Origin: Escherichia coli
GTDB taxonomy: Bacteria; Pseudomonadota; Gammaproteobacteria; Enterobacterales; Enterobacteriaceae
Assembly: GCF_048403405.1 (NCBI RefSeq)
Contig: NZ_CP183129.1
Strand: one strand, 5' to 3'
Length of the DNA: 64,000 bases
The notes under the pieces are model-generated. The model was not told the DNA's origin. It did not search any database and was given only the letters and a program-made list of their open reading frames with translations. A program made the position numbers and the translations under genes. Positions 61,321-63,468 of this stretch are shown here, one piece after another. The stretch's first letter is position 1. Every line of letters starts with the position of its first letter.

Positions 61321-61342
61321 GACGGCCTCTGCGGAGGCCGTC
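61321..61342. terminator. Bidirectional hairpin GACGGCCTC-TGCG-GAGGCCGTC between pntB and tqsA
   Basis: Perfect 9-bp stem; overlaps the tqsA stop. Confidence 0.55.
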
Positions 61343-62375
61343 ACTCTTTATTGAGATCGCTTAACAGAACGGCGATGCTTTGACCTCCCGCTGTTTGTTC
61401 AAGCGCAATTTTGACAATAATTGTCAACGGCACGGAAAGCAGCATACCCACCGGTCCTAACAACCATCCCCAAAAAATCAACGACAAAAATACCACCAAT
61501 GTGGAAAGCCCCAGCCCACGCCCCATGATGCGTGGCTCCAGAATATTGCCGAAGACCAGATTAATCAGCAGATATCCCGCCAGCACGAACAACGCTTCGT
61601 AGAAGCCATTAAACACCAGTACCTGAGCGATAGGGGGGATTGCCGCGAGAACTGAACCAATATTCGGGATGTAATTAAGCGCAAAGGCCAGCAATCCCCA
61701 GACAAAAGCGAAGCGAACATCGAGTGCGGCGAGCATCGCCCAGGCGACCAGGCCGGTGATGATGCTGATGGCTGTTTTCAGCACCAGATAATGAGACACA
61801 CTGTCAATCGCACGCTGAATCGCCGCCATCCCTTCAACCGGACGCGCCATCATTTGCTGAAATTTTCCGGGCAATTGTGGCACTTCGAGCAGCATAAACA
61901 GCACCGTCAGCAGCAATAAAAATATTGATGACATGGCATTAGATAACTGCGTCAATAAGTTGGTGAGCAACGTCATCGCCGCGTTCGGATCAATGTAATG
62001 CGCCAGCTGGTCAACTGAGACGTCAATCCCTACGCGTTGCAACAACGGTTCAAGCGCTTGCAGCGGCGTCATAATAGAGTTGCGATATTGCGGTAACGTC
62101 CGCGTCAACTCGTTGAGTGCGGAACCCAGATAAGCTAACAGCAACACCATCGCCATCACGATGATGGTCATCAAAATCGACACCGCCAGTACACGCGGCA
62201 CTCGCCAGCGGACCATGTGTTGCACCAGCGGGTTAAGAATAACAGCAATAAATAATGCGAGAATAAACGGCACGATGATCTCGGCGGCAAAACGGATACC
62301 GCAGAGAATAATGACCAGCATTCCCAACATAATGACGATTTTTAGGCCATTGAGCGTGATGATCGGCTTTGCCAT
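61341..62375 (-). CDS. tqsA: AI-2E family transporter
   Basis: 344-aa polytopic ORF. Confidence 0.9.
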
Positions 62376-62786
62376 GCTTGTCCCCGTTTTTTCTTCCTTT
62401 GCTAATAATAATGTCTTTTTCGCTCCGTCATCATAACGAAAATCAAACTGCTCAGGTAAAGAAGTGAAAATATTTTGAGTTAATTCTTAAGCTATGATAC
62501 AAATCAGGCGTGTTCAACTACCGAGGACAATTATCATCCGCGATGACGAGAAGCAACACTGCGGATAATTGTAATATTATGGACAATTTTTTCAGGACGT
62601 TATTTTCTACATTTACCCATCTTCGTACCTCATCCACTATCTTGCTCGTAGGTGAGCAGCACTGGCGCAACGCGCTTTAGTCCTTTCTTCTGCCTAAGCT
62701 TGCGCTATGCGCGGGGCTTGACCACTTTACTTTGGTTTCGCTGAAATAAGCGAAAATTAAAATAATTCTCTTGCAGGAGAAGGACA

Positions 62787-63152
62787 ATGTATATTTATTG
62801 GATTTTATTAGGCCTGGCTATTGCTACGGAAATTACCGGTACGCTGTCAATGAAATGGGCGAGCGTCAGTGAGGGAAATGGCGGCTTTATTTTAATGCTG
62901 GTGATGATTTCTCTGTCGTATATATTTCTCTCTTTCGCCGTTAAAAAAATCGCCTTAGGCGTGGCTTATGCGCTGTGGGAAGGTATCGGTATTTTATTTA
63001 TTACCTTGTTTAGCGTTTTGTTATTCGACGAAAGTTTATCGCTGATGAAAATTGCCGGGTTAACCACCCTGGTGGCCGGGATTGTATTGATCAAATCAGG
63101 TACCCGTAAAGCGCGTAAACCTGAACTGGAGGTGAACCATGGCGCAGTTTGA
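62787..63152 (+). CDS. mdtJ: SMR-family spermidine exporter subunit
   Basis: 121-aa ORF, four TM. Confidence 0.9.
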
Positions 63153-63468
63153 ATGGGTTCACGCCGCCTGGCTGGCATTGGCAATCGTGCTGGAAATCGT
63201 TGCTAACGTTTTTTTGAAATTTTCTGACGGCTTTCGTCGCAAAATATTTGGCTTGCTCTCCCTGGCGGCGGTGCTGGCTGCCTTTAGTGCGCTTTCTCAG
63301 GCCGTTAAAGGGATCGACTTGTCTGTCGCTTATGCATTGTGGGGCGGGTTTGGTATTGCCGCCACGTTAGCCGCAGGTTGGATCTTGTTTGGTCAACGGT
63401 TAAATCGTAAAGGCTGGATTGGCCTGGTCTTGCTGTTGGCTGGAATGATCATGGTGAAACTTGCCTGA
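63139..63468 (+). CDS. mdtI: SMR-family spermidine exporter subunit
   Basis: 109-aa ORF, overlaps mdtJ by 14 bp. Confidence 0.9.

Follow-up and report, generated by a model that had tools for sequence, protein, structure and literature searches.

The spacer upstream of Escherichia coli mdtJI: promoter and leader of the mdtU-mdtJI operon, and the comparative anatomy of its leader control

In the tnaC-tnaAB operon, tryptophan-induced arrest of the ribosome at the stop codon blocks Rho, and the tna rut site adjoins that stop codon. In genes 38 and 25 of phage T4, a hairpin located between the Shine-Dalgarno (SD) sequence and the AUG gives the functional spacing.

The closest described system is the leader of the E. 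coli mdtJI operon itself. Without added spermidine, most transcripts end as an RNA of about 280 nt through Rho-dependent termination, and 10 mM spermidine at pH 9 results in read-through and in MdtJ protein (PMC7815308). The upstream ORF (uORF) mdtU is translated, and spermidine induction depends on its start codon (Adams et al. 2021 eLife, PMC7815308): a change of ATG to ACG abolished induction, the effect of this mutant on mdtJI mRNA levels being exerted in cis and jointly with Rho. In a rho mutant most of the response to spermidine is lost, some induction being kept, and a Rho-associated 3' end was found about 6 nt into mdtJ (PMC7815308). Ribosome stalling on mdtU was proposed in the same paper. 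The MdtU peptide was detectable according to Weaver 2019, as cited in PMC7815308, and mdtJI has been used independently as a read-out for Rho (PMC9765468).

Identity of the locus and its promoter region

Gene order and identity showed that the window, a stretch of 64,000 nucleotides, carries the E. coli pntB-tqsA-mdtJI region. The genes which delimit and follow the spacer are:

61341–62375, minus strand: tqsA
62787–63152, plus strand: mdtJ, SMR spermidine exporter (Pfam Multi_Drug_Res)
63139–63468, plus strand: mdtI, SMR spermidine exporter (Pfam Multi_Drug_Res)

From the end of tqsA and the start of mdtJ, the spacer at 62376–62786 is 411 bp long (410 in the original prediction), of which about 277 are transcribed as leader; the remainder is promoter and tqsA-proximal DNA. 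Of 5,426 complete E. coli genomes, 5,418 carry this intergenic DNA at 95–100% identity, and a "protein YdgV" is annotated within it in RefSeq. The interval is the published promoter and 277-nt leader of the mdtU-mdtJI operon: locus, sequence, transcription start site (TSS), uORF length, the 106 nt from stop to AUG and the peptide C-terminus are those of the mdtU (ydgV)-mdtJI leader already described (PMC7815308, PMC4636849). No difference was found, and what is added here is comparative detail only.

The long structured cis-regulatory leader claimed by the original prediction is thus real and, since mdtJI leader control has already been published, not new; the spermidine inducibility of mdtJI on which it drew is published as well (PMC7815308). 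The control operates through mdtU and premature Rho termination rather than through a riboswitch. A transcription start within about 40 nt of the mdtJ ATG, regarded by the original prediction as incompatible with such a leader, does not occur, the mapped TSS being 278 nt upstream (PMC4636849, PMC7815308). The central element that it overlooked is the translated 34-codon uORF mdtU.

The comparison set consisted of about 94 distinct leaders. An alignment of 69 leaders was used for pairing counts, and other sets for the SD survey (74 distinct leaders), the CpxR box (76 distinct upstream regions) and the upstream reading frame (80 distinct leaders). The promoter region contains the following elements:

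62456–62470, plus strand: candidate CpxR-box-like element GTAAA-GAAGT-GAAAA, at −54 to −40 relative to the TSS
62475–62503, plus strand: sigma-70 promoter of mdtU-mdtJI (invariant columns and mapped TSS)
62475–62480, plus strand: predicted −35 hexamer TTGAGT, with a 17-nt spacer to the −10
62495–62497, plus strand: predicted extended −10, TGn
62498–62503, plus strand: predicted −10 hexamer TACAAA
62510, plus strand: TSS (G), from primer extension, 278 bp 5' of the mdtJ ATG (PMC4636849)

The existence of the mdtJI promoter was already known from the primer extension experiment which placed the TSS at a G residue, 278 bp before the ATG of mdtJ (Leuzzi et al. 2015, PMC4636849), in agreement with dRNA-seq as cited in PMC7815308. 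The hexamers and their spacing were deduced from the invariant columns T62495, G62496, A62499, A62501 and A62502 together with the mapped TSS.

The element at 62456–62470, upstream of the −35, agrees at 9 of 10 positions with the CpxR consensus GTAAA-N5-GTAAA (taken from PMC9600279). It is nearly invariant in the 69 leaders (segment identity 0.895); GTAAA-N5-G[A/C/T]AAA occurs at a fixed distance in 73 of the 76 distinct upstream regions, and Cedecea and RIT693 have the perfect GTAAA-N5-GTAAA. To judge by its sequence, this conserved box, noticed here, is probably a CpxR box. mdtJ has been described as a member of the CpxR iModulon, with no ChIP-exo peak under ethanol stress (PMC7657598). Binding of H-NS at mdtJI, downstream of the TSS, has been published (PMC4636849), and AcrR shifts a fragment covering the inverted repeat of the 5' UTR (PMC9769551). 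The cis-acting RNA or protein-binding element that had been considered plausible is therefore represented by published H-NS and AcrR binding as well as by the conserved CpxR-like box. The residual spermidine induction of the rho mutant indicates that other layers of control exist; a transcriptional layer (H-NS, AcrR and the probable CpxR box) may be superimposed on the attenuator discussed below.

The uORF mdtU, the RNA past its stop codon and a probable Rho-dependent attenuator

The features located between the mdtU start codon and mdtJ are:

62579–62680, plus strand: uORF mdtU (= ydgV), 33 amino acids, MDNFFRTLFSTFTHLRTSSTILLVGEQHWRNAL, followed by UAG (ORF frame, Pfam PF23502)
62600–62649, plus strand: C-rich, G-poor tract within mdtU, candidate rut site (base composition)
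62651–62680, plus strand: conserved C-terminal codons GEQHWRNAL and UAG stop (coding signature)
62680–62693, plus strand: distal anti-SD, GUCCUUUCUUCUGC, beginning at the last base of the mdtU stop codon
62695–62736, plus strand: two lineage-variable internal hairpins, 62695–62720 and 62721–62736 (minimum free energy, MFE, fold)
62737–62754, plus strand: 3' hairpin UUCGCU-GAAAUA-AGCGAA (covariation)
62765–62785, plus strand: invariant AUUCUC box and mdtJ ribosome-binding site (RBS, 62773–62785), GCAGGAGAAGGAC, segment identity 0.967

mdtU has 34 codons and its stop lies 106 nt before the mdtJ start at 62787. The peptide matched Pfam PF23502, YdgV, with E = 3.9e-26 and 90.6 bits (cut-off 27); no other Pfam family was matched and an NCBIfam search yielded no match. 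The uORF was found in nearly all related loci compared. Its C-terminus, [GC][ED]QHW[RH].AL, is common to Escherichia, Citrobacter, Enterobacter, Kluyvera, Leclercia, Kosakonia, Buttiauxella, Cedecea and Erwinia; over the last nine codons, column identity was 0.96, 0.94 and 0.80 at the three codon positions, which is a coding signature, and the nine C-terminal residues, like the UAG stop codon, were conserved in all 94 distinct leaders. A conserved C-terminal motif at the stop codon, as in uORFs that encode arrest peptides, is therefore present in mdtU. Conservation is poor over residues 8–24 (0.63 at the nucleotide level), a part that also varies in length. Within this uORF the 40-nt windows at 62600 and 62610 contain 13 C and 1 G, and 15 C and 3 G, respectively; base composition makes the tract 62600–62649 a candidate for Rho loading.

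In the MFE fold, the anti-SD at 62680–62693 pairs with 62773–62785. The corresponding repeat, GTCCTT (62680–62685) and AAGGAC (62780–62785), was not listed in the original prediction and turns out to be the pairing that matters most among the repeats of the spacer. In the 69-leader alignment, the core UCUGC:GCAGG of this long-range helix was 95% paired and its outer part only 61%. In 79 of 94 leaders, no segment pairs better with the mdtJ RBS than a CU-rich one starting 0–12 nt past the mdtU stop (median −16.9 kcal/mol); in the other 15, the RBS has a slightly better partner in a CU-rich stretch of mdtU itself. The helix is kept by compensatory variants in Erwinia, Buttiauxella and the leaders L138, L103 and L088, as in these anti-SD:SD pairs:

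E. coli: UCUUCUGC:GCAGGAGA
Erwinia: CUCUCCUUA:UAAGGAGAG
L138: CUUCCGC:GCGGAAG
L103: UCUCCUGA:UCAGGAGA

The 3' domain, 62678–62792, folds at −40.8 kcal/mol against −24.9 ± 3.5 kcal/mol for shuffled sequences (z = −4.6), and none of 200 shuffles was as good; the z-score of the whole leader, 62509–62800, was −1.89. RNAalifold applied to the 69 leaders did not choose the long-range anti-SD:SD helix and preferred a local UUCUC:GAGAA hairpin. In E. coli the predicted alternative local hairpin near the mdtJ RBS, UUCUCU:GGAGAA, has −4.8 kcal/mol and z = −1.2. No intrinsic terminator-like site was predicted in 62300–62850.

The 3' hairpin at 62737–62754, which the original prediction had pointed out, is present. 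The single sequence contains a perfect 7-nt pair with a 6-nt loop (TTTCGCT at 62736–62742, AGCGAAA at 62749–62755). Compensatory changes were observed in 4 of the 6 pairs, 94.7% of cells were paired, and RNAalifold retained the hairpin with 8 pairs; folded alone, it has −8.5 kcal/mol (z = −3.35). It is followed by A-rich sequence, with no U-run. The GC-rich pairing proposed for 62660–62720 held in part. The repeats exist, including GCGCAA (62665–62670) with TTGCGC (62700–62705), and the 62695–62720 hairpin is 79.5% paired with three covarying pairs; this hairpin is deleted in 12 of 69 sequences, and GGCGC/GCGCU (62664–62676) was rejected as a structural element, being broken without compensation in 11 of 69 and explained by the coding constraint on WRNAL. 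The repeats of the single sequence are not significant alone: perfect arms of at least 9 nt with loops of up to 60 nt occurred in 7.6% of 500 dinucleotide shuffles, and arms of at least 7 nt with loops of up to 10 nt in 18.8% of 500, neither being beyond chance. It is the other species that indicate the reality of the pairings, and the paired regions named in the original prediction were largely conserved.

We consider it likely that the leader is a translation-controlled, Rho-dependent attenuator which switches on the spermidine exporter when spermidine is high. The RNA-level steps, which we infer from the anatomy and the comparison above, extend the proposal of Adams et al. When translation terminates normally at the UAG of mdtU, the mdtJ RBS (62773–62785) would be paired with the CU-rich segment 62680–62693. 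The resulting anti-SD:RBS helix would close a stable 3' domain propped by the internal hairpins and leave mdtJ untranslated. Rho would load on the C-rich, G-poor RNA inside mdtU and terminate early in mdtJ; trimming of the RNA back to the base of the closing helix would fit the 3' end 6 nt into mdtJ. When spermidine is high, a ribosome would be kept at the conserved GEQHWRNAL-UAG end of mdtU, where it would cover the anti-SD and, together with queued ribosomes, the C-rich tract also. With both covered, the mdtJ RBS would be free, mdtJ would be translated and Rho would be excluded.

The conserved post-stop anti-SD, the z-score of −4.6 for the 3' domain, the window with 13 C and 1 G and the lack of a predicted intrinsic terminator are in agreement with this attenuator. 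Against it stand the avoidance of the long-range helix by RNAalifold, the 61% pairing of the outer helix and the 15 of 94 leaders that prefer a partner inside mdtU. Nor does the attenuator explain why conservation within the leader is highest in the 5' UTR of mdtU.

The 5' UTR of mdtU and other explanations

Three features were recognized in this region:

62510–62578, plus strand: 5' UTR of mdtU, with the highest conservation in the leader
62523–62526, plus strand: SD-like GAGG, candidate distant SD of mdtU, directly 5' of the hairpin
62527–62572, plus strand: predicted bulged 5' hairpin (fold, conservation, compensatory changes)

Mean column identity of the 5' UTR was about 0.93, almost without codon periodicity, compared with 0.83 for the mdtJ coding sequence. 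The inverted repeat at about 62527–62572 noted in the original prediction is there, with perfect 9-nt arms, ACAATTATC (62527–62535) and GATAATTGT (62564–62572); an alternative register, ATCATCCGC with GCGGATAAT, is also present. The predicted hairpin consists of an outer helix ACAAUUA/UAAUUGU, a 3-nt bulge UCA, an inner helix UCCGCG/UGCGGA and an invariant 10-nt loop, GAnGAGAAGCAA. Its core pairs were kept in 86–100%. None of 250 cells showed a broken pair in the inner helix, where two compensatory changes arose independently (C-G to U-A, and G-C to A-U); the outer helix is maintained by G·U pairs in Cedecea and Buttiauxella. The predicted fold has its bulge on the 5' side, flanked by two conserved helices, and distant lineages retain this layout. 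The hairpin folds at −13 kcal/mol (z = −2.3), modestly more stable than shuffled sequences.

In 71 of the 74 distinct leaders, the strongest complement of the anti-SD within the 5' UTR was at the GAGG position, 56–63 nt ahead of the mdtU AUG, with a median of −5.9 kcal/mol. In the canonical SD zone of mdtU no site does better than −3.3, and the one that reaches this value is buried in the 3' arm of the hairpin. In some lineages GAGG is replaced at the same spot by GGAG or GGGG, the purine tract being kept. The spacer between hairpin and AUG is constant across leaders at 6–7 nt (6 nt in E. coli).

Spermidine might be sensed at the initiation of mdtU translation, instead of or besides its termination. 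The ultra-conserved 5' UTR (62510–62578) would then be a spermidine-responsive translational switch, that is, an initiation region of the polyamine-modulon type serving as input of the attenuator: the bulged hairpin 62527–62572 would bridge the distant GAGG (62523–62526) to the AUG and, when stabilised or reshaped by spermidine at the bulge, bring the SD–AUG spacing to about 6 nt. More ribosomes would load on mdtU, keeping the anti-SD open and the Rho-loading tract covered. We hold this explanation, modelled on a predicted fold, to be possible but doubtful. It draws on the conservation of a region without codon periodicity, on the strong complement directly 5' of the hairpin next to a weak and buried canonical site, on the GAGG-to-GGAG exchange that preserves the purine tract, on a hairpin core never broken, with two compensatory changes and a retained bulge, and on the constant spacer. 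A mechanism with a distant SD and a bulged-out hairpin has been described for the polyamine modulon (PMC7177335), and the ATG-to-ACG result fits initiation as well as stalling. However, sensing at initiation leaves the conserved C-terminal peptide and the invariant UAG unexplained, an mdtU-lacZ fusion is robustly expressed even without added spermidine (PMC7815308), simple bridging does not account for the invariant loop, and the hairpin exceeds shuffled sequences only modestly.

The inverted repeat could also be a DNA operator, for AcrR for example, or an RNA site for a trans-acting protein or sRNA, which we regard as unlikely. The conservation, including that of the 10-nt loop, exceeds what pairing needs; AcrR shifts a fragment that includes the repeat and H-NS binds downstream of the TSS, as cited above (PMC9769551, PMC4636849); GGA motifs at 62524, 62563 and 62581 flank the hairpin or sit in it, as candidate CsrA sites; and compensatory changes in a palindrome could equally reflect an RNA helix or the binding of a dimeric protein to DNA. 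Centre to centre, however, the half-sites are separated by 37 bp, an unusual distance for an operator, and the G·U pairs of Cedecea and Buttiauxella preserve RNA pairing, not DNA symmetry.

Several other explanations of the 5' UTR were discarded. Its conservation cannot be attributed to a divergent tqsA promoter: no tqsA was found within 1.5 kb in Kosakonia, Silvania, Phytobacter, Pluralibacter and Erwinia, and their 5' UTR is conserved to the same degree. An N-terminal extension of MdtU was rejected as a general explanation, an in-frame upstream AUG being found in only 29 of the 80 distinct leaders; frame-shifting indels in several lineages, and in-frame stops 12 nt upstream in some, also contradict it, as does the coincidence of the GTG start given in RefSeq with the TSS. 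A role of the loop (GAGAAGCA) as an anti-SD decoy was rejected on the evidence of Erwinia, in which anti-SD and SD co-vary and the loop does not. An alternative hairpin around the AUG, AAUUGU:ACAAUU (62567–62572 and 62583–62588), failed on uncompensated variation at codon 3. A general element used elsewhere was rejected as well: the motif is single-copy, one per E. coli genome, and at the 80 metagenome loci examined each full match precedes an mdtJ homologue or ends at a contig edge.

Two observations are recorded here. A minus-strand promoter-like site at 62595–62568 overlaps an arm of the 5' hairpin. The idea of an extended MdtU came from the 56-aa YdgV of RefSeq and from a PIRT-seq hint of upstream in-frame translation.

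That MdtU works in trans as a small protein, with MdtJI or some other partner as its target and the leader structures being incidental, has very little probability. The peptide is detectable (Weaver 2019, as cited in PMC7815308), forms a Pfam family and has a C-terminus under selection at the amino-acid level. Residues 8–24, however, are poorly conserved and of variable length, the invariant stop and the adjacent covarying anti-SD point to a role in cis, and the start-codon mutant affects mdtJI mRNA in cis with Rho (PMC7815308).

Direct sensing of spermidine or guanidine by a translation-independent riboswitch has hardly any probability: the leader is long, conserved and structured and other SMR genes, e.g. 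sugE, are riboswitch-controlled (mentioned in PMC7815308), but a single-base change of the mdtU start codon abolishes induction (PMC7815308), the middle of the leader is poorly conserved (0.63) with coding periodicity in its conserved 3' part, the internal hairpins vary or are deleted in some lineages, and an Rfam covariance-model scan of 62200–63000 (E up to 10) found no family, guanidine classes included, even at E = 0.1. Two weak matches in that scan were eukaryotic snoRNAs under the gathering score and are ascribed to chance. The analogy with guanidine-controlled SMR exporters drawn in the original prediction is thereby not sustained.

Comparison with known systems

MdtJI exports excess spermidine and contributes to polyamine homeostasis, alkaline and acid stress tolerance and Shigella physiology. 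Both the existence and the outline of its leader control have been published and confirmation alone adds nothing new. The comparative additions made here, as read from the aligned leaders, are the invariant UAG, the covarying post-stop anti-SD, the ultra-conserved 5' UTR with its SD–hairpin–AUG arrangement and the CpxR-like box. A precise, covariation-backed map of the pairing RNA segments is useful, and the universal UAG of mdtU offers a simple handle on the stalling model. It is the untranslated 70 nt ahead of mdtU that are under the strongest constraint; the published model leaves them aside, and their layout is like that of polyamine-stimulated initiation regions.

The Guanidine-II (mini-ykkC) riboswitch of sugE/gdx is likewise a 5' leader controlling an SMR exporter; it differs in that the mdtJI leader gave no covariance-model match and mdtJI control depends on translation.

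The likeness to speFL-speF was drawn by Adams et al. themselves (PMC7815308). In both cases a uORF of about 33–34 codons precedes a polyamine-related operon, Rho and mRNA structure are involved, and the peptide has a conserved C-terminus near the stop, stalling having been proposed for mdtU. The ligand of speFL is ornithine, whereas that of mdtU would be spermidine and the stalling is putative. As MdtU matched only the Pfam family YdgV, no sequence relationship to speFL was seen, and the Pfam and NCBIfam searches gave no homology of MdtU to a known arrest-peptide family.

As in tnaC-tnaAB, a ribosome at the mdtU stop codon is proposed to hide RNA needed by Rho and so to cause read-through. mdtU differs in having its C-rich tract inside the uORF, and in the additional anti-SD:SD helix controlling translation of the downstream gene.

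In layout only, mdtU resembles T4 genes 38 and 25, with a candidate SD directly 5' of a hairpin and a start codon a few nt 3' of it; there is no homology between them.

The polyamine modulon includes oppA, rmf, fis, cpxR and others, and mdtU is absent from the members given in PMC7177335. mdtU shares with them an SD that is obscure or distant from the AUG and a predicted bulged hairpin in the 5' UTR. The difference is one of size: about 53 nt separate SD and AUG, with a 46-nt hairpin as the bridge, far more than in the described examples. If the 5' UTR were such a switch, spermidine would be read twice per leader, by the RNA at initiation of the uORF and by the nascent peptide at its termination. 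The conserved CpxR box, with cpxR as a polyamine-modulon gene, would add a transcriptional feed-forward arm. Arrest-peptide attenuators would thereby be linked to the polyamine modulon, two separate bodies of work.

The mdtJI leader and its published control

The end of the window corresponds to the E. coli pntB–tqsA–mdtJ–mdtI–ydgD region, in which a spacer of 411 bp separates two genes:
61341–62375, minus strand: tqsA
62787–63152, plus strand: mdtJ

Chromosomal sequence 95–100% identical to this spacer was found in 5,418 of 5,426 complete E. coli genomes. The mdtJ and mdtI genes overlap by 14 nt (63139-63152), which suggests translational coupling of both exporter subunits.

Transcription of mdtJI starts at a G located 278 bp upstream from the ATG, as determined by primer extension in a study that also demonstrated H-NS binding (Leuzzi et al. 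2015, PMC4636849); this G is position 62510. The uORF described by Adams et al. (PMC7815308) corresponds exactly to positions 62579–62680 (MDNFFRTLFSTFTHLRTSSTILLVGEQHWRNAL). These authors found that mdtU is translated, that Rho terminates the mRNA prematurely (a ~280-nt RNA with its 3' end 6 nt into mdtJ), that 10 mM spermidine at pH 9 causes read-through and that induction is lost when the mdtU ATG is changed to ACG. Others have shown the leader to be a Rho-dependent attenuator, which spermidine relieves only if mdtU is translated. Polyamine-induced stalling at the conserved MdtU C-terminus was proposed, untested, by the same authors (PMC7815308). In later work mdtJI served as a standard Rho target (PMC9765468), AcrR was found to bind the promoter fragment (PMC9769551) and induction of mdtU was reported at pH 5.8.

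The original prediction, a structured regulatory leader within 62376-62786 with a riboswitch suggested by analogy, was right in part. Its first element agrees with the published TSS, translated uORF and Rho termination, the uORF itself having been overlooked; the riboswitch analogy is unsupported, the Rfam search of the leader having returned no matching family. No intrinsic terminator was predicted in the leader. The inverted repeats listed were all found at the positions given, and are unremarkable when taken alone: among dinucleotide-shuffled versions of the spacer, 7.6% contain a perfect 9-nt arm and 18.8% a 7-nt arm with a short loop. Folding of the whole leader is only slightly more favourable than that of shuffles (z = −1.89). 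The segment between the uORF stop and the start of mdtJ (115 nt) is far more stable than expected by chance (−40.8 versus −24.9 ± 3.5 kcal/mol, z = −4.6; none of 200 shuffles folds as well).

Conservation of mdtU and of the predicted helix closing on the mdtJ RBS

Eighty loci were gathered through MdtJ, one genome per species, and further loci came from a metagenome pattern scan, giving about 94 distinct leaders. Two loci were unusual. In Escherichia sp. MOD1-EC7003 (locus L002), whose leader is nearly identical to that of E. coli, tblastn gave no TqsA match in the 1.5 kb upstream from mdtJ, which may reflect a rearrangement or a search artefact. A contig labelled Chryseobacterium sp. 18061 (CACSKA010000003.1, L054) carries an Enterobacteriaceae-type mdtU-mdtJ locus with full leader and an MdtJ 81% identical; the assembly is probably mislabelled or contaminated.

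The MdtU peptide matches Pfam PF23502 YdgV (E = 3.9e-26), and the uORF was found from Escherichia to Buttiauxella, Cedecea and Erwinia, with the C-terminus [GC][ED]QHW[RH].AL. A coding signature marks its last nine codons, where column identity at the three codon positions is 0.96/0.94/0.80; conservation is poor over codons 8–24 (0.63), and the stop codon is UAG in 94/94 distinct leaders. Thirteen C and one G in 62600–62639 make this part of mdtU a candidate Rho-loading tract.

RefSeq annotates the locus as 'protein YdgV', of 56 aa from a GTG (62510-62680; 1635-1805 in locus L001). This GTG falls exactly on the mapped transcription start and is therefore a very unlikely start codon; neither the Pfam model nor the published uORF extends beyond the last 33 residues. 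In E. coli, an AUG in the same frame at 62543, within a hairpin loop, could give rise to a 45-aa product, in line with a PIRT-seq hint. As coding sequence the 5' UTR of mdtU was rejected: its reading frame is not conserved, and just 29 of the 80 distinct leaders have an in-frame AUG upstream.

One element begins at the mdtU stop codon:
62680–62693: CU-rich anti-SD, paired with the mdtJ RBS (62773–62785) in the E. coli fold

In 79/94 leaders, the segment that pairs best with the mdtJ RBS starts 0–12 nt past the mdtU stop, and in distant lineages the pairing is preserved by two-sided changes (CUCUCCUUA:UAAGGAGAG in Erwinia; CUUCCGC:GCGGAAG and UCUCCUGA:UCAGGAGA in loci L138 and L103). For the 69 closer leaders, RNAalifold preferred a local UUCUC:GAGAA hairpin over the long-range helix, whose outer part is only 61% paired in their alignment. 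An invariant AUUCUC box lies directly upstream from the mdtJ SD (62765-62781) and can pair locally with GGAGAA in a weak hairpin (−4.8 kcal/mol); it would then be an additional, proximal anti-SD in competition with the distal one. In 15/94 leaders (Citrobacter, Kluyvera and other loci, e.g. L010, L018 and L033), a CU-rich stretch within mdtU, ~40 nt upstream from the stop (…UUCCUGCUU…; columns 225-231 of alignment A1), gives a slightly stronger duplex with the mdtJ RBS than the post-stop segment does, suggesting a second anti-SD melted only by translating ribosomes.

Four of the six pairs of the 62737–62754 hairpin change on both sides and 94.7% of cells are paired, which marks it as a real RNA helix. 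Together with variable hairpins (62695–62736) it lies within the loop that the anti-SD:SD helix closes, where these hairpins may act as struts favouring closure.

Proposed mechanism

If the ribosome departs from the UAG without delay, the anti-SD would close onto the mdtJ RBS; mdtJ would then be untranslated, Rho would load on the C-rich RNA and transcription would stop early in mdtJ. The reported 3' end lies ~7 nt beyond the base of this closing helix, which would agree with trimming by an exonuclease as far as the helix. The footprint of a ribosome held on GEQHWRNAL-UAG would reach to roughly 62690 and take up 11 of the 13 closing-helix pairs; with queued ribosomes the C-rich tract would be covered too, and the mdtJ RBS would be freed and Rho excluded. 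We regard this overall picture as probable; its published parts are near certain, and the stall-and-unmask step is perhaps somewhat favoured.

Promoter and 5' UTR of mdtU

Three promoter elements are conserved:
62456-62470: CpxR-type box GTAAA-GAAGT-GAAAA, at −54 to −40 of the mdtU promoter
62475–80: −35 TTGAGT
62495–503: TGn + TACAAA

The CpxR-type box is retained in 73/76 distinct upstream regions, as a perfect GTAAA-N5-GTAAA in Cedecea and RIT693. The Cpx response is triggered by alkaline pH, which is also the condition of the observed spermidine induction. The CpxR iModulon includes mdtJ (PMC7657598), and cpxR itself is a polyamine-modulon gene (PMC7177335); direct CpxR binding at mdtJ has not been reported in the literature. 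A minus-strand promoter-like site, CTGAAA-16-TACAAT (62568-62595), shares sequence with the 5' hairpin, in its 3' arm, and with the first codons of mdtU, and could drive tqsA or an antisense RNA; such sites were about as many in the scan as in shuffles, and this one may be chance.

Conservation within the leader peaks in the 69 nt from the TSS to the mdtU AUG, where column identity is ~0.93 (versus 0.83 for the mdtJ coding sequence) and codon periodicity is almost absent. The tqsA promoter was rejected as the source of this conservation, which persists where tqsA is absent. The motif has one copy in E. coli and, among the metagenome loci examined, was found only upstream from mdtJ homologues. 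Its strongest 16S anti-SD complement, GAGG (GGAG in some lineages), lies directly upstream from hairpin 62527–62572 in 71/74 leaders; the hairpin, with a conserved 5'-side bulge and an inner helix showing no breaks and two independent compensatory changes, ends only 6–7 nt from the mdtU AUG, whose canonical SD zone is weak and buried.

In polyamine-stimulated initiation regions the SD is distant and a hairpin carries a bulged-out region (PMC7177335). The mdtU 5' UTR has the same layout, so mdtU initiation may be a further point at which spermidine acts. We consider this unlikely; it leaves the conserved peptide end and the invariant loop unexplained; binding of a trans-acting factor to the 5' UTR is more doubtful still. 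Control by the mdtJI leader is already known, and the refinements from the present comparison are few, concrete and testable.
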